This document shows positions 5,751 to 63,742 of a stretch of 64,000 nucleotides of DNA, in pieces (within the stretch, counting starts at the first letter, position 1; every line of letters starts with the position of its first letter). The stretch is from Klebsiella phage phiKp_32: the sequence record LC768500.1; one strand, given 5' to 3'. A program made the position numbers and the translations under genes. The notes beneath the pieces are model-generated. The model was not told the DNA's origin and ran no database searches. It saw only the letters and a list, made by a program, of their open reading frames with translations.

Positions 5751-6272
5751 ATGAAAGTTGTTAGATTTGGTAATGTAACCGTCAATAAAGATAATAAACT
5801 GGAGATCGCCCGATTTAATTTCTCCAGTGCGTATGACGGCGAACCAGTCACCCCGGCAGGGATGATTAAAGCTATCGTAAACTGTCTTAATGATTACGTT
5901 GGTAAGACGGATGGGATGTTCAGCCCCGTTAAGGATCTAAGTGGCTCGCCACTTCTAATGGGGTCAAACATTCCAAAAGATCAGTCGGTGTTAATGATTC
6001 CCGACGGCACCCTGGCTTTAGCCGAACTGGATCCTCCTGTCTTTAGCACCAACGAATACACGTTCTTAGAAGTAGAAGAACGCGTTTATCAGCTCATAGC
6101 GATGCAAATAGGTATAACACTCACTACCGAAATGGGCGTCATTCCTGGGTCGGTTGAACTGATTGATGTGGATGACTCTCGTCCACATCCCGACAATGTC
6201 GTAGGTTACTGCCTGACATTAGAAAATCCACCGCGGTATTTCTTGAAAGTTAAGAATAAAGGAGTTCGGTAA
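5751..6272 (+). CDS. hypothetical protein
   Basis: 173-aa ORF. Confidence 0.5.
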   Translation: MKVVRFGNVTVNKDNKLEIARFNFSSAYDGEPVTPAGMIKAIVNCLNDYVGKTDGMFSPVKDLSGSPLLMGSNIPKDQSVLMIPDGTLALAELDPPVFSTNEYTFLEVEERVYQLIAMQIGITLTTEMGVIPGSVELIDVDDSRPHPDNVVGYCLTLENPPRYFLKVKNKGVR

Positions 6273-7057
6273 TGTTAGAGACCCAGCTTAAAGATCGCCT
6301 GACCATCCTGAACACTTTCGAATGGTTTACCTACTTCTGGAATAAATTCCAGGAAGGCATGTATGATGTAAGGCGAACCATGCATAGCGCGTCGGTTGCG
6401 ATTAATAACGGCGATTGTGCGGTAGCCGCTTTAGCGGTAAGTTCCGTTTTGAATCGTCGACTGGATGTTAACGTTGGAATGGCTCGCAATACTCTTCACG
6501 CCTGGGTCACTATCGGCAACGATATCTTTGATACCGAATTTCCAACGGGACACGATATAGCGAGTTTTAAATCTCGTTGGGGCGATCGTATCAGTGAGGT
6601 GGTTTTAACGCCTGAGACTCTCGTAGAAGAGTTTATGCCGTGCGATTTGGTAGGCGCCTATCTTGTAAAAGAATTTTGCGGGACAATGGGCGAGGTGCAT
6701 CCTAAAGAAATCGATTTTCTTCTGACCAACCCTACCGAATATGAATCTCAGGAAGGGATTAGTAAAATCGGAAAGGCTCTCGCATTTGCAGTAGAAGAAA
6801 CCCTGAAAGCCCGCAGGACAGTAACGACTATCAAACACGAGTCTTACTTCACTGCCAAAGAAGCCACGATGGATCATGAGCTCAAAGATCATGTCAGGGA
6901 TATCTATTCCGGTATTCTGATCTGCGTACTGGTGGATAAGAACGATCACAAAGTGATCGGAGAGTCTTATCACAAAGGACCAGAAACAGAACGCACGCTA
7001 CTGGCGAGATCCAGAGCTAAGTTTATTGCTCTGGATAAACTTAGAGACGTGGTGTGA
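6272..7057 (+). CDS. transglutaminase-like cysteine protease superfamily protein
   Basis: Cys/His/Asp triad context GDCAVAALAVSSVL ... HAWVTIGNDIFDTEF. Confidence 0.45.
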   Translation: MLETQLKDRLTILNTFEWFTYFWNKFQEGMYDVRRTMHSASVAINNGDCAVAALAVSSVLNRRLDVNVGMARNTLHAWVTIGNDIFDTEFPTGHDIASFKSRWGDRISEVVLTPETLVEEFMPCDLVGAYLVKEFCGTMGEVHPKEIDFLLTNPTEYESQEGISKIGKALAFAVEETLKARRTVTTIKHESYFTAKEATMDHELKDHVRDIYSGILICVLVDKNDHKVIGESYHKGPETERTLLARSRAKFIALDKLRDVV

Positions 7058-7082
7058 TCATTCAATTTTAGGAAACAAAATC

Positions 7083-8783
7083 ATGAACGAAGAAAGTAAA
7101 ATCGCGATCGTTTCTCATGGGGAGGTTGTTGAGTTTGATCCTAACAGTGCTGACCATCGAAAGATTCTTGAGTCGGCAAATAGGAAACTTATAACGAACG
7201 AACTCTACCAGCGAGATTTAAAACGCTTTAAAGAGCTGGTTTTGTTTTATCAAAGTGCGGTTAGCAAAGAAACCGTCGATGATAAAATTGAGGAGTTCTT
7301 AAGGGCTACCGGGATAAGGTTGGACTATTCTGATCTGGCCATTTTTAACTACGGGTACCCGGACATAGATGGATACTTCGAAGCCCTCTATAACCGCGCA
7401 ATGGGTATTGAGTCAGCTGATGAGAATCCGATTGTTGGACTGAAGGAGAAGAGCTTGGACCCTCAACATTCATCAACCAACGCTGGCGGTGGGTTATTAT
7501 ACGACATTCTGCTCCGTAAATTTAACCGTTTTATGCAGAACGTAACAGCTGACCTTTTATTATTAGTGGACGTAAAATCGTTAACAAGGCAATGCCGGAT
7601 TGAGACAAACATCCTCAGAAAAATAGAGGGGTTTAATAAAGAAACAAATCTGGAACTGGATCGCGTCGGCATAGGTCGCTCAATCGATGAAAATTCTCAA
7701 ACCGAGTATTTTAATGTTCTTTTCGTAGACCTAATTAAACGATCAGAAGAATTCAGAATACAGACGATCCCTCTTTCGGAGAAAATTCGGTTTTATCAAT
7801 CAGACTGTGGTGAAATCAGGATTGGTGGAAGTGATAAACCTTCAACCATAATCTTATCGTTACTGGTTACCGATAAGGAAGGACGAGTGTGTTCGCGGAA
7901 TACCGGGGAGTTATTGCCTGGTGACAAACCACTGTCATGTTTTATCTGTAACGACTCGGCGGATAAAAAGGAATCAAGAAATGAGCAACCTACTGGAAGA
8001 TTAAGAACGCCCTCGCGTTATTGGTACGATCGTTTCGGCCACCCTCATCTTTTAGAGTCTGGTAAGCCAATGCACGTAAACTTTATTAAATGCGAACCGG
8101 GGTACGGTAAATATTTGGATCTGTCAGTCAATAAGGGTCCGATACCCTCCCCCGATCCTCGCGATGAAAGCGTAAGGGGTAAAGATACCGTTATTCAAAA
8201 CGGCATTTCAATTACCACTGGGAAAGTCAACATGCATGCGCTTGAGGCGGCATGTCGGACAATGGCTGAAAATATGAAAGCCATGCACCGCAAGCCCGTC
8301 TCTGATGAATTTCGCGATAAACTTTACGAGGCGCTGGCCGCCTTTTATCATCGACATCACTCTCTAGGAAATGCTTCAAGAGAGTTCCTGTACGGGGATG
8401 TTATTTGCATCGAACGGTTTAAGCGCGAGTTTGGAATTGTTTTCTCCGATAAGGACGTGGACGCGTTTCTTAACGGAGTTATGCCTATTCCTGAGTTACT
8501 CAGCAAATACGTTAGAGAACTCCGTCCCGGTGAAAAGAAAATCACAACTTACTCACAATACGCTTTAGCTCTAAACACAATAACCTCGTTATTGTGTTTG
8601 TTTCCTTCAAACGTAAGGACGAGAGAAGATATTGAACGTGCTAAAGCATTACACGTTCAATTCAATATTCGTTTTGACATTGATATGTCCGAAGAGGATT
8701 TCTTAGCGATTATCTATCGTCATGGCGCCCCCCGCCATTTTCTCAAAAAACACGCTACCACTGAAGCCACTAAAGGTGAATAA
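7083..8783 (+). CDS. hypothetical large protein (566 aa)
   Basis: Start chosen at ttttaggaaacaaaatcATG; no motif recognised. Confidence 0.5.
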   Translation: MNEESKIAIVSHGEVVEFDPNSADHRKILESANRKLITNELYQRDLKRFKELVLFYQSAVSKETVDDKIEEFLRATGIRLDYSDLAIFNYGYPDIDGYFEALYNRAMGIESADENPIVGLKEKSLDPQHSSTNAGGGLLYDILLRKFNRFMQNVTADLLLLVDVKSLTRQCRIETNILRKIEGFNKETNLELDRVGIGRSIDENSQTEYFNVLFVDLIKRSEEFRIQTIPLSEKIRFYQSDCGEIRIGGSDKPSTIILSLLVTDKEGRVCSRNTGELLPGDKPLSCFICNDSADKKESRNEQPTGRLRTPSRYWYDRFGHPHLLESGKPMHVNFIKCEPGYGKYLDLSVNKGPIPSPDPRDESVRGKDTVIQNGISITTGKVNMHALEAACRTMAENMKAMHRKPVSDEFRDKLYEALAAFYHRHHSLGNASREFLYGDVICIERFKREFGIVFSDKDVDAFLNGVMPIPELLSKYVRELRPGEKKITTYSQYALALNTITSLLCLFPSNVRTREDIERAKALHVQFNIRFDIDMSEEDFLAIIYRHGAPRHFLKKHATTEATKGE

Positions 8784-9947: not shown

Positions 9948-10356
9948 GAGTCACGGGGAAGATTATACCGACGCAGAGCTTGATTTTATCGCAAGCGTAG
10001 CACACAGCGTGCAGTGCGGGATAGACTATGCCTTCGGTCTGCCGGAATTACATCAATGGGGGTTGATGGGGGATGGTTATAAAACCCAAATGAAAGCATC
10101 CGTCAGAGCCGTTCTGGTTCATGACAAATCACCAAAATCTCTCCATGGTAGTTGGCTTAGTCGGCTAACCCAAGAAGGTTGGGTTCATGGAGAAGTAAAG
10201 GATGCGGAAAAGAAAACCCATCCGTTATTAGTTCCATTCGACGAACTTCCTATCGAATGGAAACTTCGTCTTCGTCAATTCAGAGCCGCAGTCATTCCTT
10301 TTAGAAAAACCAAAAATACAGTGAGATCTAATCTCATTACCTTTTCAACAAAATAA
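9937..10356 (+). CDS. RyR-domain protein
   Basis: W...L+QEGWVHGEVKDAEKKTHPLLVPFDELP.EWK..R matches the phage RyR (PF02026) pattern. Confidence 0.6.
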   Translation: MGRKSHGEDYTDAELDFIASVAHSVQCGIDYAFGLPELHQWGLMGDGYKTQMKASVRAVLVHDKSPKSLHGSWLSRLTQEGWVHGEVKDAEKKTHPLLVPFDELPIEWKLRLRQFRAAVIPFRKTKNTVRSNLITFSTK

Positions 10357-10380
10357 CCTCACTAATTTAGGGCTACGATT

Positions 10381-11124
10381 ATGAGCGAGAACATTCCTTA
10401 CGTTTACCTTCCTTCCGACATCAAACACGATTCCGGCGTTGTTTTGAATCGCGATAAGATCAACCGTTCGAAAACGATCATTAAAACGTTGGGGGTCAAA
10501 ATAAAAGACCACAACAACACCGTAAAGATGTTTGACAAAGCGATGTCCGGCGAGCTTTATCAAACCAAGGAGGGGAGAAAATACCGTTCGGTAACCTTCA
10601 AGTTACACGCCAAGCGAAAGAAGGAACTTCTGGAAGCGCTTAAAGCGGAAGAAAAGGTATTGCGTGCGATGAAAGAATTCGGCGTGATTCTTCAACAGAA
10701 TATTTACGATGCTCAGTCGATGAGTTTCTCTCCTTTCTCTTTAAAAGATTTTCTCGACTCTAAAGCACTCGGCAGTATTCCGGGTAAATCTGAATTACGG
10801 GATCTTCGTCAGTCGTTAACCAAATTAATTGAAGCGGATCCTGATGCGGTTATCTGGATTGCAAAAAGAAATCTGGACGGGGTTCCGGTCGCTTTTATCG
10901 CCGGCCGAGATCAAGGCGATAATGTGTTCGACATGCTTGTTTTCTATTCGCACACTGAGGATAAAGACCGGCATAATGAGGTAATGAAATACCTCATTAA
11001 ACGTCTAAAATCGATAGGCGTCGCTCCTATCAGTCTGATCTCTATTTCTCCTGAATTTAGTGCGGTGGGTCACGCAATGGAGAAAATGGGTGGGCGCATG
11101 GCTTCGGCACAATTTGACTTTTAA
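10381..11124 (+). CDS. hypothetical protein
   Basis: 247-aa ORF. Confidence 0.5.
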   Translation: MSENIPYVYLPSDIKHDSGVVLNRDKINRSKTIIKTLGVKIKDHNNTVKMFDKAMSGELYQTKEGRKYRSVTFKLHAKRKKELLEALKAEEKVLRAMKEFGVILQQNIYDAQSMSFSPFSLKDFLDSKALGSIPGKSELRDLRQSLTKLIEADPDAVIWIAKRNLDGVPVAFIAGRDQGDNVFDMLVFYSHTEDKDRHNEVMKYLIKRLKSIGVAPISLISISPEFSAVGHAMEKMGGRMASAQFDF

Positions 11125-11136
11125 GGGTGATTAAAC

Positions 11137-11811
11137 ATGGGTGTAAATTCTAGAACGATGTCGCTTTCTTACTACAAGACCAAAACGACAGATGAAAAAG
11201 ACGAGTTTCCTATTGACTCCGATATCAATACTGTCATCTTTGATTTCGAAACCGCTTCGCTTGGCATTAATCCAGCGATCCTCAGTATGGGCGCGTTTGC
11301 TTTCGATCGGTTTAGTTTAGAAACCACACAACGTCGAATGAAGAATCCTCAGGATAAGGATACGTTTTATCGTAATCTTAATCTAAAGGAATCGTTCTTC
11401 TTGGGTTTCGACATCTCCAAAGAAACCGGAGAATGGCATTACAAAAAGAACGGAACTAACCTCGGTAAGATGTTAGAAAATGAGGTTTCTCCCTACGCGG
11501 CCTTACGGGAATTCAAACGCTTCATCATGTCTTATCGCCGTAAGACCGAGGACATGGTTATTCTGATTCGTCGCACTCACGCAGATTACATTTGGTTAGA
11601 GAATCTGTGTAAGCGATTGGATACAGAGATGTTCCTCAGGCACAACGACGTGATTGACATCCCAAGCATCGTGTTTGCTAAAACAGGTGACGTCAAAGGG
11701 CATTACACCCTAGAGGAAAGTTTGTTTGAGGACCTTGTAAGTCATCATGCGCTGACCGATTGTTATTTAGACGCGCTTCGCATTTGTTCGCTGTACCAAG
11801 AAACGAAGTAA
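11137..11811 (+). CDS. DnaQ-like DEDDh 3'-5' exonuclease
   Basis: Exo I-like VIFDFETASL motif and Exo III-like HHALTDCYLDALRI (H-x4-D) motif. Confidence 0.55.
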   Translation: MGVNSRTMSLSYYKTKTTDEKDEFPIDSDINTVIFDFETASLGINPAILSMGAFAFDRFSLETTQRRMKNPQDKDTFYRNLNLKESFFLGFDISKETGEWHYKKNGTNLGKMLENEVSPYAALREFKRFIMSYRRKTEDMVILIRRTHADYIWLENLCKRLDTEMFLRHNDVIDIPSIVFAKTGDVKGHYTLEESLFEDLVSHHALTDCYLDALRICSLYQETK

Positions 11812-56300: not shown

Positions 56301-57145
56301 GAGAAGATGGAATCACGCAATCTACCTTTAGCTGCCATAGCCAGGGAAGTTTTCTCGTAATCACTCTTACCCGAATTAAGAGTGATCTTTTTAAGCTCGT
56401 CAATCTGACGATGCATCGAGGCTTCCATGAACTTGTAGTATTTAGCGTTGGTTAAATGCATCCGAGCCAATAAGTTGATTTTAACCGCATCGTTCTTAGC
56501 CTGGATTTTATTCTGGTAACGCAAAATACCTTGAAGGGTGGTCGAGATCCCGCCTAACAGCGAATTGGTTGCTTGTTGCTGAGCTAATTGACGACCGCCA
56601 ACTACCGCGGTCATGTTGTTGATAGCCCGCCCAATACCCACCATTGTTCCTGTCTGCTGGGCCGTAACTCCGCTTATAAAACCGGCTAAGCCATCTTCAT
56701 CGACTTCTCCCATACTTGGATCAGAAGGCGTGTATCCTCCTTGATCCCAATGGCTAAAGTCCTTATTGCTGAAGGTCTCCAACCCCTGGGCAATTTTATT
56801 AGGAGCCTTGTCGCCGTGGCGGTCTAAGGTCATCTGAGCAATTGCCTGGAGATCTTCCACCATATCTTTTGATCCGGCTTTGACCTCACTTAGGATCTCC
56901 TGCTTCTTCCAATCAAACTCTCTTTTTAAATCAAAGACAGTCCCAAATGATTTTGGGAGGAGCATTTTAGCCGTTCTCAACCTACCTTCTGAACTTCCTA
57001 TCGTACCGCTGTGGAGCTCACTGAGAAAACCGCTCCCCATGCTCGCAAAGAAACCTTTTTTAGGTGCGTTATCGAAGTCGAAGTCGAAATCTATATCGCC
57101 GGCGAATGGGTCGTCTCCCCAATCGTCGAAATCATCTTTAGCCAT
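50339..57145 (-). CDS. giant virion-associated protein (2268 aa) with a C-terminal lysozyme/GH19-like peptidoglycan hydrolase domain
   Basis: Near the C-terminus: ...LANFESGGF...YRGRGFIQLTGKDNFRAASQYVG... (lysozyme-like/chitinase class I signature GRG.IQLTG..NY). Gly-rich TM-like segments and size are comparable to phiKZ gp181. Confidence 0.75.
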   Translation of the reverse strand: MAKDDFDDWGDDPFAGDIDFDFDFDNAPKKGFFASMGSGFLSELHSGTIGSSEGRLRTAKMLLPKSFGTVFDLKREFDWKKQEILSEVKAGSKDMVEDLQAIAQMTLDRHGDKAPNKIAQGLETFSNKDFSHWDQGGYTPSDPSMGEVDEDGLAGFISGVTAQQTGTMVGIGRAINNMTAVVGGRQLAQQQATNSLLGGISTTLQGILRYQNKIQAKNDAVKINLLARMHLTNAKYYKFMEASMHRQIDELKKITLNSGKSDYEKTSLAMAAKGRLRDSIFSTIGRRSGGVMGYLSETFGKEAREGMLSGLSGMVGAGRMGMEMSEGMGLNMGTIIGQMLANEVIERGPAFFKSGQGAKLINKLATLYPKEAKNIRRQYRKLEQLGSVLSYAGTNAAGLAGTILRNNANYEEDFSTYDDYLDSLAPGEKRLSERAWRLKQTGKNFLGNRLNDLSFNINDSRGKQYELKKRNLMDLTQPSYWSSQSDRTLNEIIPGWFAKLHLSLEKIRTGNDNLKEERFDYRSGKFLSHKQTQNAVKRNLLNGREFSGLASGTSDMVSVIDKNGTLSPEAKRFLSYRLARDVDQDKGFNPFNYFGMEDEDGLTPSIRKEIEQVMRGSFRLTDQHIEAAKKSGLAGIKAQLNMPTAKSKRLAADLSLRAKNLKGYLPNISQQIDLLRNAGYDPLLREMNLINSENGSDFFNTDAIWDRLKSELNGNEGLIEEDDVGPLPTRGGMGGGNSKTIINNRRGLSGKDSGKLVTALSELTEQLKLGIPGRQDGNALSPEQVKSLTDSVMGIRDINQEQLEVLKQILSRQPAEVNKPKTDAEDAADTAQKKTILDRIKSLGGIKDIFSAGMDKLLAHEPLMLGGMLGGLAGLAIHDPKTAALIGGGAAAWALYTKVRSMADARDVSDDEDIYDGESEDPILEARKLRARQYYDKVLKKIITSWKEIKGSIVDLGTKVVISAKRLSGKLFSAEGKAVVLRGLNAVKSAGLKLFNWLDPLNRLKGIGQGITNRITQMDVYRVGEDSPVLTRKGFENGKYFKRLNGSVVPVKGWRDIDGPVYDENGDVIITQAEYEDGLITSGGMKIESLKRMTGVMGGKLLDLGRKLGDRAKGYGKRAGDKINDLVTADYTPITNSVDRIYALLCRKFGYDINDMPDIKADIVNETSRMGNTDDVRLNSLEDKERKAKAERESRYQDAIIDLAGHREGERGSGSPDEEKKGGGFLNGLLGFVKNPMGTILGGVAGLGVKLSKFLTLGITTLPAIVSGLTSLAKILTVGLLGRRASDGVDDIVDAAGGASGRRRGRRTRGGRVGRGRAFKFGLAGLATAGLGMYLDATNEEHEGTNWKDVASNTLTAASAVSLGSSAMSAMGINLGIGSAIASGASAAGSAIVSGTGALATAVAPLLFNPVTLGIGAVAVAGYLIYKYYAKGKGSQFKLRMAQYGIKDVESDLAAKIRSAEEALREYVVVTAGVASIAKSAPLEQIFQSFIPQANDKGQQQAYFTWFNLRFKPIFLTYASAIDTAGYRDFETFDKSTDAKLYSTVSTINDRIGTINPYPYQIAAQFDEATPIMGKDQTINQVRLYLDELKSFNERHGRTAEGIEKEGIVTMKTSAEQVEKSEKAGWWSSLKMRVGGTYEDRSDIEEINKRYPVTKSVMEINITDLLPGGDKPLAGITALRLAAYGDTEHIPWRVEAVLKLERYCEDYISVIGNDARFTSTTGAVYNLFKNSFRITDDQANQWCTWFRDRFLPVCMAWVKYVRIMRGVKPSAGWKSMTATNAFDFAKELLGLKVNIGKTPTSVWEVKWSPFPNTTSGSITPQVKAIVNNLDTAAKNAKLNFGDKEVKASGAKEVVPYTSAHSMGEGGLNQAVATAAMGDNVIAGGQPVINYKPITGNTDTSTVDLSGVTPVGGSGGGDKGVSVPQKAAEQLIMKEMIKAGFTDPRLIAEMLALANFESGGFKNTAENMNYKPGRLLEIFPGRVKSMGQAQQIVAGGPQAIANAVYGGRLGNSGPNDGWLYRGRGFIQLTGKDNFRAASQYVGKDLVKNPELVSTDPEVMAKTLIWYLSNGSTGKRLQSIVKNNSFEYAAQGLNPNGLPDMPARTRLYQQYMKRLTSNELTVDPNAGATPSSSGETPPSSVSSVSPDAKPPTMKSENVGTANSVAAVSAITTPSVNQGPKPIGAVPSTPVSEGSVAYKSDPANPLNRVKVPTEQSTSAPPTPLAKPVQQPDPVATAQVQAQGRTNDLLAQLLKEIQNQKAPDPRMGYTSK

Positions 57146-57165
57146 TTTAACCTCGTGGTGCGAAT

Positions 57166-58605
57166 ATGCAACCTACTAATATTACGTTATTGAACCCAAA
57201 CAAAGTGGCTTGGGCTCTCATGAAAGCCGTGACGTCAACAGACGTCCATGAGGGGATGACCAACAACCTTCATGAAGATGGTTTATACTCTCCAACAATC
57301 TTCGGTCGTGTCGGTACCGACCAACGAGATAAAACTCAATCTTACATCAATGTTAAGATTCCTGTCTTCAACCCGACTTATTTTAAGGCTTTGATTGGGT
57401 TAAAGGGTTTGTATCTCGGAATAATCAAAGGGACGGAATACGCCCTTTGGGACGCATCAGAACGCGACTTCATAAAATCAAACCTCCTGGAAGGAGAAAC
57501 CGGCTACAGTTTCTTTATGCGTCACTTTTACGACTTAGAGCCTAAGTTAAACGAAAGTTATAAACGCAAACAGCGCGTAGAACTCTTTAATAAATTTAAA
57601 GACATCGCGTTGACTAAAAACATCATTGTCCTGCCGGCTGGTATTCGCGATATTCAAATAGAACCTAACGGACAAATCGTCGAGCCTGAAATAAATGATT
57701 TCTATCGTAAACTGATCTTCCGTAGTCGCAGCGTGGTTATCCAGGAAGGTGAAGAAGATAATCCGATTTACGATAACATCCGTTGGGCGATTCAAAGCGT
57801 GTTTAACGATATCGATGATTATATCTTCCGACTGATGGAAGGTAAGCGTGGATTCTTACAGCGCCGAGTCTCAACTCGTGGTGTCGTCGGGGGTACTCGT
57901 AACGTTATTACCGCTCGTAAAGTTTCTGTTGCTGATGCGGATGATGATAATGGGGTTGACGTTAACACCACAGATATCGGGATGTATCAAGCGCTGTTGG
58001 GTTTCCAATACGTTGCACGATATGCGTTACTTAAAGGTTTCTTAAGCCGCGTGTTTACGGTAGGGTCAAGTACGGCTAAACTCGTCGACCCCAGAACCTT
58101 TGAATATCAATACGTTGAAGTTGAGAGCAACATTGTTGACAAATGGTTGTCAGCCGATGGACTCACCGCTTTGTTCAACGGATTCGGCACCAGGCACTTG
58201 CGTCATAAACCGATCAAAATCAACGGTTATTACATGGGCCTGACCTATGATGACGGTAAATATGTCAAGTTACTCGGTGACGTAACCGAACTTCCTCCTG
58301 GGTTTGATAAGAAGTTCTGCAAACCATTGACTTACATGGAACTCTTCTATTTAAGTTGTGTCGAAGAAATAGAAAAGAGGATGCTTCAGGTTACCCGTTA
58401 TCCGATTACTGGGATGGGGTCCATCTATCCTAGCTTCATCAAAATCAAAACAACGACTAACGCCCAAAAAAGAATTATTTTAGATGATTACTGGGAAGAA
58501 GGTTATCGTTGCACATACTACCCAGTCAGAGAAACTAAACCAGATTATTTCGACGCCATGAGTGTCGATGGTAGTCGGTTAGGATTACTCGGCGGGGACT
58601 TCGAT
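57166..58605 (+). CDS. RNA polymerase beta' subunit N-terminal fragment, exon 1 (ends ...GGDFD)
   Basis: Aligns with bacterial beta': IIVLPAGIRDIQIEPNG vs [33 protein letters not shown] vs DLYRRVINRNNRL; GKRGFLQRRVSTRGVVGGTRNVITARKVSV vs [26 protein letters not shown]; terminal DGSRLGLLGGDFD vs NADFDGD. Confidence 0.85.
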
Positions 58606-58985
58606 TGATTGCAAATCACATTTGCACAGTCCCACTAGACGCGAAAGCTCTAGTGCGTATCTCCTTGAATTGTCTGGGAAGCTCACAAAAGTCTGATGCC
58701 TGCTTAGCAGGAGCCGATAAGGCAGAAATAAGTTCAGACCTGACCTATGCTAAACAATAAGGCTAAGGGTTATTAACAAGGGGCCATCAGCAGCGAACCC
58801 TACTTCGGTAGGAGACGTTCAACGACTAGAGCGGAAGCGCTCGTACTCTTTACAGGGAGTAAAGAGGAAGTGGGGAGAGGGCTAAGTTCGGCACTAGCCG
58901 AATACGTCTAAGATATAGTCTCGACGTCCAAGGTAAGACTTGGAGTACGCTAAAGCGTAGGGGTGTGGAAACACCTTAAGAACCG
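58606..58985 (+). mobile_element. group I intron (ORF-less, 380 nt) in the beta' gene
   Basis: R element GTTCAACGACTAGA (58817-58830) and S element CTAAGATATAGTC (58908-58920) form a P7 pairing. A P-like element TGAATTGTCTGGGAAG lies near 58676. The 5' exon ends in U and the intron ends in G (58985). Joining the exons restores DFD|GDQ. Confidence 0.8.
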
Positions 58986-59159
58986 GGCGACCAGTTGAAT
59001 TCTAATTCAATCAACGGAGAGGATGCTATTGCTGAAGCTAAAGCTTTAATGGGCAGACGCGATTACTATATCACCGGCACGGGGCAGTTCCTTTACAGTC
59101 CAACGGTGGAACCTCACGAATTCTTATTCCGAAATCTCAGTAACGGACTCAACCTATGA
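58986..59159 (+). CDS. RNA polymerase beta' N-terminal fragment, exon 2 (GDQLNSNSINGEDAIAEAKALMGRR...*)
   Basis: Begins GDQ, completing the DFDGDQ motif. The 22-aa span to EAKALM matches E. coli [22 protein letters not shown] in length. The stop overlaps the beta-gene ATG (ATGA). Confidence 0.75.
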   Translation, partial: GDQLNSNSINGEDAIAEAKALMGRRDYYITGTGQFLYSPTVEPHEFLFRNLSNGLNL

Positions 59160-62100
59160 GCGTATTATACCAACAGTTCTTCCGTAATTTTGTTCTTAGG
59201 AAAAAACAAGAAATTACAAATCCTAAGTTTCACCATCTGACGGATATGGTGTTGCCGAGAGAATCGGTAATGATGTATCTACCGAAGACGCAAGAAGATA
59301 TCGGCCCAAGTACCGAGGAGCCCTTAATAGGGACTTACCCTGATGGGGTTAACATTTATTTCAACAGTCTTTATATAACCCCCATCGGAAGAACTCGACC
59401 CGTTCCCTTTAACGAAAAGCAATCTATACAGCTTTATCGTAAAAGCCATTTCAAATACAACTGGGCGAGGACGCTGTCCAACTACCTGAGCCGTCGTCAG
59501 GAACTGTTGGTAAACAACATAGCGATGGGACCCCATCGTCACCGTTATGTCTTTACTCGCTTTGTTCAGTTCGAACGAGCTTACAACCAACTGGCTTCTG
59601 GGATTGAAGCCGTTAAGCAAATGAGTAAGGAAACGACCCGCAATCAATACTGGCGAATAGAACTTCCTCCAAGCATCCCCGATTATCGTCAACTGCTGGT
59701 AGCCGTCGATCATTATAAGAAGGCGTTCAAAGACGGTGTTTATACCACCACTGACAATCAGGCTGTACTCCCGTTTAAGGGCTACGGTTCTTATTGGATC
59801 ATGGATTGGTACCTCTTCTTGATAGGCGAAAAGAACTACAGTCTGTTTAATCGCTTAGATAAAGAAGAAATGGATAAACTCCACATCATCTTTAGTCATA
59901 ATGGACTCAGCTGGGTAGTTAACCTTGGTATCGTCTCTCAATGGATGGAAGAACTTAACGACAAGCACGGCAATCCCACCAGTATGCGTGTTAACGCGGC
60001 TAAACGGTTCCTGCTTGGATTTAGGGCTCTGATAGCGGGCGGCACGCTAAGCGAAACCATAGAGGAGAAATCTCATGCCGCTGAGAATGTCGGATTGGGT
60101 ACTGGAACGCCAGAAGAGGAAAGAAGAAGCCAGGAAGCTAATAAGGAATCAGAAGAAGAACCGCTGGATCTCGATGAGTCTGAAGAGATTACTGATCAGT
60201 CTGTTACTATGCTTGATCTTTTCATGGGCAGCAAAAAGGCTGATACAGAATCTGATGATGACCAAGGAGGAGAGGATTCAGGAGGAGCTGATGAGAATCA
60301 CGGAGAAGAGTGGGCTGCAGCGGTCGACGATGAATTACTTTATAACGCCGAAACAGAAGGATTAGGGGAAACCAAGAAAGTTATTTTCAGTACCCCAGAA
60401 TCTGGTATCCTGAGAGCCTTAGAGCAAAGAGCCAAGGCCGGGACATTAACTGTTGCGGAACAACGTTATTACACTAATCTCGCGCAATCATACAAAACGA
60501 TCAAAATGCCTAACGGTGAAAGTCTTGAAAGTTTTGTTAAGATCGATCAGGCCAAACTCCGCCACCTTCCTGCTAAAATTGCTCCTGAGATGAGAGGGAT
60601 CATCGACCCTTCTCAGCTACAAAGTAGAGCGACCAATCTTAAAACGAAATACTCTGAAGAATTCCTTAATCGGGATATAGCCGGGATGATACTGAACATT
60701 CAGAACGCCGGTATCGTTTTAACCGACCTGAAACGTGAACGTATCGTCAATGCGGAATCGGCTTACGACGTTTATACCATGAACGTCCATCCTGTTGGCG
60801 GATCGCCTAAGACCGCAATGTTCCGCATCCCCAAAATTGACAAAGACGGAACCTTCACTGTCGATGGGGTAAAACAACATCTTCAACTTCAGCGTATGGA
60901 AATACCAATTCGTAAGATAAACTCTGAGCAGGTTGCTTTGACGAGTTATTATGACCGCAAGATCATGATGTCTCGTTCGACAAAGGTTGCAGATGATTAC
61001 GGATTGTGGCTGAACAAACAACTTATTCTGTTGGGTGAGGCCGGTAAAGTATCTGGGGTGTTGGGCGATGTCTATAATCGTAGTTACGCTGTTCCTCGTA
61101 CTTATTCTGCGTTAGCCAAGCGGTACCGAACATTAAAGGCTGGTGGGATTGAATTCAACTTCGATCTTTCTAGTCTTGTTGGCTCAGAGAAAGAAATCAA
61201 GAAACTGATTTCTCCTAACTGGGTTCCGGTGGCTAAAGAAGGTGACGGCTTCATCTTTATGGATGATGGCGGTAACCTTTACAAAGATAAGACACACATT
61301 GGTTCTTTCGAAAGCCGCTGTGGAATTGACACGACGAAGGCCCCAGTCGATATCGTTACGGTGAATGTAAACGGATACGCTTTCCCTATCGGTGTAGTGC
61401 TCGCTTACTACTTCGGATTCGACGAACTTCTTAAAGCACTCAATGCTGACTATCGGACCGTTCCGGCCGGTGAGAAAGTTCGGATGGGTCAGGACGAATA
61501 CGCGATAACCTTTAACGACGAAACGCTTATTTTCAACAGACGGGATAGTTTAACCGCACTTATCATGGGCGGATTCCGGAAGTTAGCGAATCTCAGTAAC
61601 TTCTCTCGCTATGACCTAAACACAAAAGGTGTATGGGTGCCGGCTATCGGGGATAAGAAAGTCAAACCTGGTCATTTTGATGAAATGCGTTTGATGTTCG
61701 AAATGTTCATCGATCCGATCACCAAATCTGAACTGGTTAAAAGGGGCTATCCGACTGAGCTTCATTATCTCATGATCGAAGGCGTGAAAATGCTGAACAC
61801 CGATCGAACTGCTCACGAGATAGAATTAACTGAGCAACGTTTCGTTGGGTATGAACGTTTTGCTGGCCGAGTCTATAATGAGATTGTTAAGTCAACGCGT
61901 CAATTCAGGAATAAAGGTAACGACAAACGTTTCACCTTCGATATGAACCCTGAAGCGGTTATCATGAGTATCATCACCGATACAAGTGTAAACCTAGTCG
62001 AAGAGGTTAACCCCATCCACGAAATCAAAGAACAGGAAGTTGTTACCTTTGGTGGTACTGGTGGGCGAAGTGAAACGACAATGGTCAGACGTACACGTGG

Positions 62101-62308
62101 TCAGCAAGAGAACTATGCTGGGGTTATCTCCGAGGCTGGTAAAGACTCCGGTAAAGTTGGGTTCGTGAGTTACTTAACGAGCAACCCTAAGATCGCCGAT
62201 TTCCGTGGTAACGTCGACCTAAGCATGCCTGACACTCTGAGCGGCAGACTGTCGGTAACATCCAACCTTTTAGCTCACTCGACCTCCGATGACCCAAAAC
62301 GGTTAACT
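59156..62308 (+). CDS. RNA polymerase beta subunit (or N-terminal fragment), exon 1
   Basis: NPIHEIKEQEVVTFGGTGG vs NPLSEITHKRRISALGPGG; GKVGFVSYLTSNPKIADFRG vs [38 protein letters not shown] vs [19 protein letters not shown]. Acidic low-complexity insert near the N-terminus. Confidence 0.8.
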
Positions 62309-63742
62309 GTAATATTTTCCTGAGTACAATATTATGTTGAGACTCAGGAGCAAATTAAGATGAAACCAATTGAGTGTAAAGATTTTCCAGGGTATTACGA
62401 GATACCCAATTTTTCCAAGTACTGCATTAATAAAAAATCAGATATTATTCATAAACGCAAAAACAAAAAAATCAGACAGTACGACGTTAAATCTTCTGTG
62501 ACGTCCAGGCCAGAAACCGGGTGTTATAAAAGAGTGACGATGTATTCTGATGATAAAAAACTCCACGCCTTTTCGGTCCATCGGTTAATGGGCTTGGTGT
62601 TTAAACATCCTGGTGCCGGGTTTCACTCTCTACAGGTCCACCACGGAGATGGGATAAAATTTCATAACGACATCGATAACTTAGAATGGGTTACACCCAA
62701 GACCAATATTGTTTTAGCAAACGATTATTACATGGGTAAAGCTAAAATACCTGTCCAAGCTAGGTCTAAAAACGGTGAAGTTCTAAATTTTTCTAATCTA
62801 AGTGATTGTGCTAAATTACTCGGGATCCATAGGACAACCCTTATCTCCAGATTAAGTACGTTTGGAGAAAAGTTTGTTCACCCAGAGGGCTATCAACTGA
62901 GGTACGGAAATTCCGATAAGCCATGGGTTGCACCAGACGAAGAATCAGCTAAGGACTTAGATGAGTTTTACTCGTCACCCATTTTGGTAAAAAATCTCAA
63001 CACTGGCGAAGTGAGGGAATTTAAAACAGCCAAAGGCGTGATGGAATTAATAGTAAGATCTCCGTCAAGCATAAGTACTTTGAGTAATGATTCGACTCAA
63101 CCCATTGTGATGGGTAAAGATAACGTACCGTACATTCTCATAAAAAAATATTCTGGGGTCGATTTCAGGAGAGTTGACGATCCAATGAATGATTTTGTCG
63201 AACAACAGACCAATACCAGAACGGTAGTTGCGACGAATGTTACGACTAATGAAAAGAGAGTTTATACGACCGCGCAGGCGTGCGCATCTGATTTTGGAAT
63301 AGGAAAAACTACACTTAATTGGCGTCTTAAGAAACCCATCCCTGGTGTTTTCGACGGATGGATTTTTAGATATTACGAGGCCCGTATGGGAGGAAACACC
63401 CATACGCAATAATCTTTAATTGTTCTGGGACGATCTCGAAGACTCTCATACCAAAGCGGAATACGAAAGTATAGACGTCATGGTTTTAAAAGTTGAGAAG
63501 AGAGACGATCTAGCAGCGAAGCACCTACGTATCTTCGAGAGAAGAGATAGGGTGAACGTTCAACGACTATGGGTGAAACTCCCAGTAGATTTTACATGAA
63601 GTAATTTCGAAACAGGATTCCCTTCGAGTGAGCTGAAGAAGCTCGATACTCATGGGTGAAATATAGTCTGCTCCCTACGGCGACGTAGCGGCGGGTGTCA
63701 TAGCACACCGGGTTGAAGGAAGCAACCGGACATAAGGCTCTG
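62309..63742 (+). mobile_element. group I intron carrying an HNH homing endonuclease gene, inserted in the beta gene (boundaries +/-6 nt)
   Basis: R element GTTCAACGACTAT (63558-63570) and S element GAAATATAGTC (63658-63669). The downstream frame encodes HKALFSGVQQSQGVSA, which continues the E. coli beta [15 protein letters not shown] alignment. The track ORF 59156..62323 runs into the intron and terminates at 62323. Confidence 0.75.
62360..63412 (+). CDS. intron-encoded HNH homing endonuclease
   Basis: LQVHHGDGIKFHNDIDNLEWVTPKTN HNH motif; RBS ctcaggagcaaattaagATG; located between the 5' splice site and the intron catalytic core. Confidence 0.8.
   Translation: MKPIECKDFPGYYEIPNFSKYCINKKSDIIHKRKNKKIRQYDVKSSVTSRPETGCYKRVTMYSDDKKLHAFSVHRLMGLVFKHPGAGFHSLQVHHGDGIKFHNDIDNLEWVTPKTNIVLANDYYMGKAKIPVQARSKNGEVLNFSNLSDCAKLLGIHRTTLISRLSTFGEKFVHPEGYQLRYGNSDKPWVAPDEESAKDLDEFYSSPILVKNLNTGEVREFKTAKGVMELIVRSPSSISTLSNDSTQPIVMGKDNVPYILIKKYSGVDFRRVDDPMNDFVEQQTNTRTVVATNVTTNEKRVYTTAQACASDFGIGKTTLNWRLKKPIPGVFDGWIFRYYEARMGGNTHTQ

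Follow-up and report, generated by a model that had tools for sequence, protein, structure and literature searches.

The window analysed here is a stretch of 64,000 nucleotides (nt) from the genome of Klebsiella phage phiKp_32 (251,460 bp; sequence record LC768500.1), and the subject of this report is a 380-nt element that interrupts an RNA polymerase gene at positions 58606-58985. On the plus strand, an open reading frame (ORF) at 57166-58608 encodes 480 amino acids (aa) with the C-terminus ...SRLGLLGGDFD and is closed by TGA at 58606-58608. From 58986 onwards the same strand reads GDQLNSNSINGEDAIAEAK..., which is translated into GDQLNSNS...SNGLNL, 57 aa in total, before a stop codon is reached. 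This stop codon, TGA at 59157-59159, overlaps the ATG (59156-59158) of the following ORF, which encodes a beta-like subunit of the virion-associated RNA polymerase (vRNAP) with 1055 aa. In the GenBank record of phiKp_32 the 480-aa ORF is a "hypothetical protein" and the 57-codon segment is not recognised. Judged from the sequence, the 380 nt very probably represent a self-splicing group I intron of subgroup IA without a homing-endonuclease gene, and the interrupted gene is, as part of the same assignment, very probably the one for the N-terminal beta' fragment (beta'N) of the multisubunit RNA polymerase that a Miami-like jumbo phage packages in its virion. The features of the locus are given below, with an arrow marking the splice junction here and in the following.

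57166-58605, plus strand: exon 1 of the putative vRNAP beta' N-terminal subunit gene, 480 codons, the last being GAC TTC GAT (D-F-D); ORF list
58606-58985, plus strand: putative ORF-less group I intron (380 nt) that separates the Asp codon from the Gly codon in DFD↓GD, phase 0
58606-58608, plus strand: in-frame UGA, the first codon of the intron; read from the sequence
58986-59159, plus strand: exon 2, GGC GAC CAG ..., 57 codons and TGA; translation

The uninterrupted form of the gene is present in phage Miami, where CPT_Miami_232 is a single ORF of 537 codons that reads ...GGGGACTTCGAT↓GGCGACCAACTT... at the site. Exon 1 is collinear with codons 1-480 of CPT_Miami_232 and the protein encoded by exon 2 is fully identical to codons 481-537, so that the joined exons (57166-58605 and 58986-59159) yield a protein of 537 aa, 533 of which are identical to the Miami protein. 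The nucleotide sequence of the intron-less Miami allele at the junction is ...GACTTCGAT↓GGCGACCAA.... The last base of exon 1 (58605) is T and the last base of the intron (58985) is G. With T at 58606 but G at 58986, and T at 58605 but G at 58985, there is no room to slide the boundaries, and the intron is exactly 58606-58985. The reading frame, the coordinates, the 57-aa segment, the overlap with the ATG and the bases at both splice sites, all of which had been proposed in an earlier note on this DNA, are borne out by the sequence and its translation.

For the comparison with further genomes, the region 57100-60100 was used as megablast query against a phage collection. Miami, YC1 and KPN8 (Klebsiella) as well as the "Stenotrophomonas" phage BUCTxx100 were matched with about 97% identity in two pieces each, covering 87% of the query, and exactly the 380 nt are absent from these four genomes of 97% DNA identity. 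Most members of the protein cluster formed at 90% identity around the 480-aa ORF have a length of 537 aa. The intron is a presence/absence polymorphism among genomes that are 93-97% identical. A phage designated oKp_32, with which phiKp_32 agrees, was described as 95.9% identical to Miami in a publication in which introns are unmentioned (PMC10581060). In IMG/VR, neither the exon-intron junction nor the P7/P7.1 region was matched by a scan for the exact pattern. The exact 480-aa ORF was found in only one other contig, Logan DRR406566_183, which ends about 105 nt into the intron; this end may represent an assembly break at repeated or polymorphic intron sequence.

It is extremely improbable that the gene is naturally split, i.e. 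that a 480-aa and a ~54-aa polypeptide are made separately and then assembled with no RNA splicing at all. The beta and beta' subunits of jumbo phages are already divided among several polypeptides (PMC7598289), and an in-frame TTG is available at 58995. However, the Gly-Asp codons (58986-58991) lie upstream of this only candidate start and therefore would be in no fragment, so that DFDGD would not be rebuilt; moreover, the TTG is not preceded by a Shine-Dalgarno-like sequence, and the spacer is a conserved ribozyme fold. The closest relatives carry one continuous ORF of 537 aa, and the naturally split beta' in related phages that the earlier note had considered was not found.

The identity of the interrupted gene was addressed with profile-based and translated searches. 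With both exons joined, and only then, the protein gives an end-to-end match to PHROG 2986 ("RNA polymerase beta subunit"; profile positions 5-538 of 539). Tblastn detected homologues in 288 phage records; N1M2, OBP and SXP01 have theirs labelled as "virion-associated RNA polymerase beta' subunit", and RAY has the label "vRNAP beta' subunit 1". A Pfam search of both exon products and of the downstream beta-like ORF gave no match. The only match in a single-sequence PDB search, located at ADFDGDEMN of RPC1, was not significant; a profile of three sequences was needed, for which the spliced window protein, the EL homologue and phiKZ gp180 were combined. This profile matches the beta' chain of AR9 (7S00/7S01) with E = 3e-10, and its positions 464-506 align with residues 446-488 of E. 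coli beta', the catalytic loop region, single bacterial matches being weak (E = 4e-4 to 0.04). In the alignment of the spliced window protein, EL and phiKZ gp180, D478, D480, G481 and D482 are invariant. The motif is GGDFDGD with all three aspartates present, and the junction lies between the second Asp and the Gly, in agreement with the proposal that the catalytic motif of a beta' fragment is split as DFD↓GD. The gene order is also that of known vRNAP loci: a lysin-bearing virion protein of 2268 aa on the opposite strand, beta'N and the beta-like gene follow each other as do gp181 / gp180 / gp179 / gp178 in phiKZ and gp183 / gp184 / gp185 / gp186 in EL.

The insert was compared with the Rfam covariance model Intron_gpI (RF00028), which it matches over the full model (positions 1-253) with 37.5 bits. 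The match is significant beyond chance, with E-values of 6e-8 locally and 5.6e-6 for the whole 64-kb window; the score itself stays under the gathering score of 50. For this reason a default Rfam scan of the whole window misses 58606-58985 and reports a single match, 63354-63690 (51.9 bits). Using blastn with the intron alone, 28 jumbo-phage records were found to contain related sequences, which in many cases lie within or next to annotated RNA polymerase subunit genes. Five of the homologous introns exceed the gathering score, namely those of Salmonella phage SPLA3 (68.9 bits), Vibrio phage 2 TSL-2019 (66.5 bits), Proteus phage 7 (51.9 bits), Vibrio phage VP4B (51.2 bits) and EL (51.1 bits).

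In order to analyse the fold, nine ribozymes including the window copy were aligned. RNAalifold recovered P2, P3, P4, P5, P5a, P5b, P6, P6a, P7.1, P7.2, P8 and one P9 hairpin from the alignment, with compensatory double changes in 44 of the 64 predicted pairs. After P7 had been added as a pseudoknot, the consensus comprised 69 pairs in 14 helices, and 93.2% of the cells were standard pairs, compared to 36-47% when the 3' partners were slid by 1-3 columns as a control. Changes on both sides were found in 45 of the 69 pairs, and none of 500 shuffles matched any observed measure. The sequences are few, and the consensus structure came from the same alignment as was tested, so the slid control favours the consensus; given the size of the effect and the compensatory changes in the individual helices, the conclusion on the fold is nevertheless robust. 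The window copy makes 65 of the 69 consensus pairs, and the four missed pairs result from shifts of register in P6a and P9.1, both perfectly paired when the copy's own register is used.

Helices P1-P9 are present in the window copy, including the P3/P7 pseudoknot and P7.1/P7.2, and the P, Q, R and S elements were all found (AAUUGUCUGGGAAG, AUCAGCAGC, GUUCAACGACUAGA and AAGAUAUAGUC, respectively), the R and S cores being unvarying across the nine sequences. The blocks AATTGTCTGGGAAG (58668-58681), GTTCAACGACTAGA (58817-58830) and AAGATATAGTC (58910-58920) correspond to the P4-like block and the two P7 strands quoted in support of a group I intron before; together with the paired fold, they uphold that classification. 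The parts of the ribozyme, all on the plus strand, are listed in the following.

58603-58631, plus strand: P1, exon bases G58603-A58604-U58605 and intron bases U58606-G58607 with C58627-A-G58629-U-C58631
58633-58655, plus strand: P2 hairpin with GAAA loop, compensatory changes in 5 of 7 pairs
58660-58666, plus strand: P3 5' strand UCUCCUU, partner GGGGAGA at 58872-58878, compensatory changes in 4 of 7 pairs
58668-58792, plus strand: P4-P5 domain, from the consensus fold and pair counts
58671-58677 with 58787-58792, plus strand: P4, in the P4-P5 domain
58682-58684 with 58781-58783, plus strand: P5, in the P4-P5 domain
58691-58696 with 58734-58739, plus strand: P5a, in the P4-P5 domain
58741-58772, plus strand: P5b, in the P4-P5 domain
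58793-58818, plus strand: P6/P6a, UUCG-capped hairpin, from the consensus fold, with the P6a register CCUAC-UUCG-GUAGG taken from the sequence directly
58824-58828, plus strand: P7 5' strand GACUA in the R element GUUCAACGACUAGA, partner UAGUC at 58916-58920 in the S element AAGAUAUAGUC
58829-58842, plus strand: P7.1, between P7 and the P3 3' strand
58846-58866, plus strand: P7.2, between P7 and the P3 3' strand
58879-58909, plus strand: P8, from the consensus fold and pair counts
58927-58944, plus strand: P9, from the minimum-free-energy fold
58946-58959, plus strand: P9.1, from the minimum-free-energy fold
58962-58975, plus strand: P9.2, from the minimum-free-energy fold

Every one of the nine aligned sequences is paired in the P7 columns, with three of the five pairs invariant, and by analogy with other group I introns P7 is predicted to be the guanosine-binding helix. 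Extra helices P7.1 and P7.2 between P7 and the 3' strand of P3 are the mark of subgroup IA in the classification of Michel and Westhof. Since both are present here, with compensatory changes in all 11 of their pairs, the intron is placed in subgroup IA. The 3' tail after P9.2 ends with G58985, and a terminal G is found in every aligned homologue.

At the 5' splice site, a U58605·G58629 wobble is located inside the pairing GAUUG/CAGUC. The segment 58600-58634 folds with -8.9 kcal/mol (z = -3.5), and P1 is extended by a 7-bp hairpin at 58610-58626 with a CAC loop, the position at which relatives hold an HNH ORF. Among seven introns (the window copy and six homologues) the guide covaries with the exon: GAU↓ is accompanied by the guide GUC in the window copy, EL, Raoultella phage VB_ZK_P1, VP4B and TSL-2019, and GGU↓ by the guide GCC in SPLA3 and Proteus phage 7, with more compensatory changes at +1 and +2.

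From these elements the course of splicing can be proposed. In the pre-mRNA, GAU (58603-58605) and the first two intron bases would pair with the guide CAGUC (58627-58631), so that the U58605·G58629 pair marks the cleavage site. P7 would bind a free guanosine for the attack 3' of U58605, after which the released 3'-OH of the exon would attack 3' of G58985. The ligated message, with the predicted junction ...GACTTCGAT↓GGCGACCAG..., would read GAU↓GGC and encode the 537-aa protein with the Mg-binding loop DFDGD intact; the predicted tryptic peptide across the junction (...GGDFD↓GDQLNS...) is LGLLGGDFDGDQLNSNSINGEDAIAEAK. Translation of unspliced RNA would terminate at UGA, the first codon of the intron, and give a 480-aa product without the third catalytic, Mg-binding Asp, so that splicing would be obligatory for an active enzyme. 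The homologous introns likewise start with or near a stop codon (UAG in EL, UAA in VP4B and phiKZ gp180, UUU UGA in VB_ZK_P1), and therefore ribosomes on unspliced RNA would halt at the junction.

The splicing chemistry in phiKp_32 is inferred from the mechanism of the intron family. Several observations speak against this reading and have to be added to the Rfam score below the gathering threshold. The exon share of P1 amounts to 3 bp only, and inspection by eye gave no convincing P10, in which the guide region would pair with the 3' exon GGCGAC. When more of the upstream exon is included, the minimum-energy fold of RNAfold favours a competing GGGACU/AGUCCC pairing; as a functional P1 this pairing was rejected, since with it the splice site is unpaired and neither EL nor TSL-2019 shares it. 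Furthermore, a long-read transcriptome of phiKZ contained no spliced reads for the predicted gp56, gp72 and gp179 introns under the conditions used (PMC10914365).

The very short exon-guide pairing, the lack of an evident P10 and the spliced reads unseen in that one phiKZ study would fit a genuine group I intron that does not splice autonomously in vivo but needs a helper protein or the conditions inside the phage nucleus. This variant is considered unlikely, as the ORF list contains no maturase-like ORF in or adjoining the intron and the fold is complete, with the peripheral helices P5a/b, P7.1/7.2 and P9.1/9.2 as stabilising elements. Still less probable, at only a few chances in a hundred, is the remnant of an intron that has decayed and lost its splicing, leaving beta' as a pseudogene or as a truncated 480-aa product only. 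The score under the gathering threshold, the short P1 with an available competing pairing and the missing endonuclease ORF, which may place the element in the degenerative phase of homing, are compatible with decay. On the other hand, the core of the ribozyme is intact, with 65 pairs of the 69-pair consensus formed and the four misses explained by register shifts of the alignment. The truncated product would lack the third Mg-binding Asp, and phiKp_32 is a propagated isolate. In addition, the protein encoded by exon 2 is that of Miami despite eight silent changes in its first 24 bases, and exon 2 is therefore under purifying selection. A self-splicing intron that restores the beta'N reading frame remains the favoured explanation.

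The absence of a homing endonuclease gene, as claimed in the earlier note, is confirmed by the ORF list: no such ORF is contained in 58606-58985, where the sole ORF is a 51-aa one starting with TTG that overlaps the ribozyme. The relatives do carry ORFs in the P1 loop, with 423 aa in EL (annotated as HNH endonuclease), 424 aa in VB_ZK_P1 and 286 aa in Proteus phage 7, each flanked by a long closing stem. The HNH gene of the relatives' P1 loop was most likely either lost from the phiKp_32 intron or never in it. The intron is unable to move on its own and presumably immobile, and most likely it came by recombination or homing from a related intron-bearing phage. When the spliced gene pair was compared with Miami over 4756 positions, 3.0% differed. 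Thirteen silent differences fall within -34 to +23 of the junction (window positions 58571-59008), including all six codons after GGC GAC, and this cluster is one of the two densest 40-nt windows of the region. It fits flanking exon sequence co-converted with that of a divergent donor, or else selection acting against a sequence that an endonuclease recognises. About 960 nt further upstream, the same gene contains a second, equally dense cluster of differences from Miami.

A second group I intron was detected in the window at about 62302-63736, in the vRNAP beta-like gene; its ribozyme is the match at 63354-63690 noted above, with 51.9 bits above the gathering score. It carries an ORF for a 350-aa HNH/NUMOD1 endonuclease (62360-63412). 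The beta-like gene comprises 1055 aa in the window and 1418 aa, uninterrupted, in Miami. The insertion site is DDPKR↓A, three codons downstream of the two aspartates at the intron site of PhiPA3 gp210, and the junction is ambiguous, as exon 1 may end with G (product KRALFS) or U (product KRSLFS). The HNH ORF of this second intron was considered as a source of the endonuclease for 58606-58985 and set aside: with 350 aa compared to 423-424 aa it is not obviously of the EL gp185 type, and it lies in an intron of its own at a distance of 3.4 kb.

Introns are an established feature of jumbo-phage polymerase genes, and the phiKp_32 intron is an unannotated, ORF-less case at a site that is already occupied in EL. 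Thomas et al. 2016 marked introns in their scheme of vRNAP subunits (PMC5105663). PMC10914365 and PMC11512511 describe introns with endonucleases predicted at gp56, gp72 and gp179 of phiKZ, interrupting gp55 and gp180, and cite Mesyanzhinov 2002 and Ceyssens 2014 for these predictions. The insertion site, which the earlier note calls the most conserved one of a multisubunit RNA polymerase, is not surprising for this phage group, since phiKZ and EL introns occupy the same motif. The junctions in related phages, in vRNAP or non-virion RNA polymerase (nvRNAP) genes, were read directly and are as follows.

EL gp184 (vRNAP): junction DHD↓GDQ, same position as in the window
VB_ZK_P1 and VP4B (vRNAP): junction D(F/Y)DGD↓Q
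phiKZ gp180 (vRNAP), 10347-11789 of one phiKZ stretch, minus strand: junction GAD↓FDGDT
phiKZ gp55 (nvRNAP), about 1172-2540 of another phiKZ stretch: junction KAPN↓ADFDGDQ
Vibrio phage 2 TSL-2019 (nvRNAP): junction NAD↓FDGDQ
SPLA3 and Proteus phage 7 (nvRNAP): junction ANG↓DKQDFDGDQ
Aeromonas PS1, CF8 and ZPAH34 (vRNAP): junction DFDG↓DQ

The correct gene structure is missing from several of these deposits. In Proteus phage 7, TSL-2019, SPLA3, VP4B and EL, exon 1 is annotated with a tail that reads through into the intron, and exon 2 is either unannotated or given as a separate small protein from an internal start; one of the five exon-1 genes is labelled "RNA polymerase alpha subunit". In the RefSeq record of phiKZ the short second exon of gp180 is unannotated, and that of gp55 is PHIKZ056.1, which begins at an internal Met. 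The PDB chain 7OGP_A is named "PHIKZ055 ... PHIKZ056.1". Since these two ORFs flank the gp55 intron, the chain appears to have been made from the joined exons of phiKZ gp55, the paralogous gene. The same mis-annotation concerns many jumbo-phage genomes (EL, VP4B, VB_ZK_P1, SPN3US-like phages and Aeromonas phages), and intron-aware annotation is required for correct models of this gene for an essential virion enzyme.

The inserts of the three Aeromonas phages (about 989-1245 of the PS1 stretch used) have a length of ~257 nt and are more than 90% conserved among each other. The exon ends with U and the insert with G, and the insert is apparently unrelated to the window ribozyme. An Rfam scan of the 257-nt insert gave no match even at E <= 10; a fold made by hand, as an unvalidated model, suggests a group-I-like topology (P3 GUGCGG/CCGCAC, P8 CAUCC/GGAUG).

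The junctions of the remaining introns fall into five positions: G↓DKQDFDGD (SPLA3, Proteus phage 7), N↓ADFDGD (phiKZ gp55), NAD↓FDGD (phiKZ gp180, TSL-2019), DFD↓GD (window, EL) and DFDGD↓Q (VB_ZK_P1, VP4B). In all seven introns in which P1 was checked, a G-N-U triplet precedes the site and is accompanied by a covarying 3-nt guide G-N'-C. The relatedness of the ribozymes does not track the site, as the window copy is nearest to that of VB_ZK_P1 and those of EL and VP4B are mutually nearest, the sites of each pair being 6 nt apart. This may point to repeated changes of site, but the identities are low. It is tentatively proposed, with a good deal of doubt, that one ribozyme lineage may occupy at least five phosphodiester positions within about 10 codons around the Mg-binding motif in both paralogous polymerases, shifting by means of its minimal guide. 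If true, this guide would permit shifts between adjacent Asp (GAU) codons, for instance by reverse splicing or imprecise homing, and one such shift would have given rise to the ORF-less copy in phiKp_32. No description of this multi-position pattern around the catalytic aspartates was found in the literature searched, and it may be the only part that is new; the many adjacent positions and the covarying 3-nt guide provide a testable lead on how introns change their site.

The T4 introns in td, nrdB and sunY are subgroup IA phage introns in essential genes, with P7.1/P7.2 and an early in-frame stop past the 5' splice site; unlike the window intron, they reside in genes of nucleotide metabolism, not in polymerase genes. 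The closest counterpart in position is the intron of EL, where gp184, gp185 (HNH) and an unannotated exon 2 form the orthologous vRNAP beta'N gene, which adjoins the giant tail/lysin gene as in phiKp_32. Its position (DHD↓GDQ) is identical, its ribozyme is homologous (51.1 bits on Rfam) and its GUC guide is the same, whereas it differs in length (1772 nt), in the 423-aa HNH ORF in the P1 loop and in the ribozyme sequence (~58% identity). The closest ribozyme found is that of VB_ZK_P1 (71% identity by blastn, 65% in the alignment), with the same guide and fold in the same gene, which is 93% identical to the host gene in the window. This intron is inserted 6 nt further downstream (DFDGD↓Q), has a length of 1737 nt (6013-7749 of the VB_ZK_P1 stretch used), contains a 424-aa ORF similar to EL gp185 and is flanked by otherwise Miami-like exons. 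The sole flanking exon change compared to Miami, GAC to GAT, creates the U at the splice site.

In phiKZ, group I introns interrupt the same beta'N motif in gp180 (followed by gp179 and exon 2; virion) and in gp55 (followed by gp56, an HNH endonuclease, and gp56.1; non-virion). They differ in position (GAD↓FDGD and N↓ADFDGD) and each carries an ORF, gp179 being unnamed in the record; moreover, P2 of the window copy is without counterpart in the aligned gp180 ribozyme. Compact homologues without an endonuclease are the introns of TSL-2019 (nvRNAP, NAD↓FDGDQ, 392 nt), SPLA3 (nvRNAP, 347 nt) and VP4B (vRNAP, DYDGD↓Q, 497 nt), which belong to the same ribozyme family and lie in or beside the same motif, but in other positions or in the paralogous polymerase and with 55-60% identity.

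In this class, the intron of PhiPA3 gp210 is the best studied (Birkholz et al. 2024, PMC11620839); it belongs to group I and interrupts the vRNAP beta gene at conserved aspartates. It is located in beta, not beta', and encodes an active nicking HNH enzyme that was found to interfere with a competing phage, and a role of this intron in competition between phages has been demonstrated (PMC11620839). Since the intron at 58606-58985 is ORF-less, a nicking activity like that of PhiPA3 cannot be encoded there. The understanding of group I introns and of RNA polymerases is unchanged by the phiKp_32 intron, which adds an endonuclease-free member to the introns targeting the catalytic aspartates of jumbo-phage RNA polymerases.

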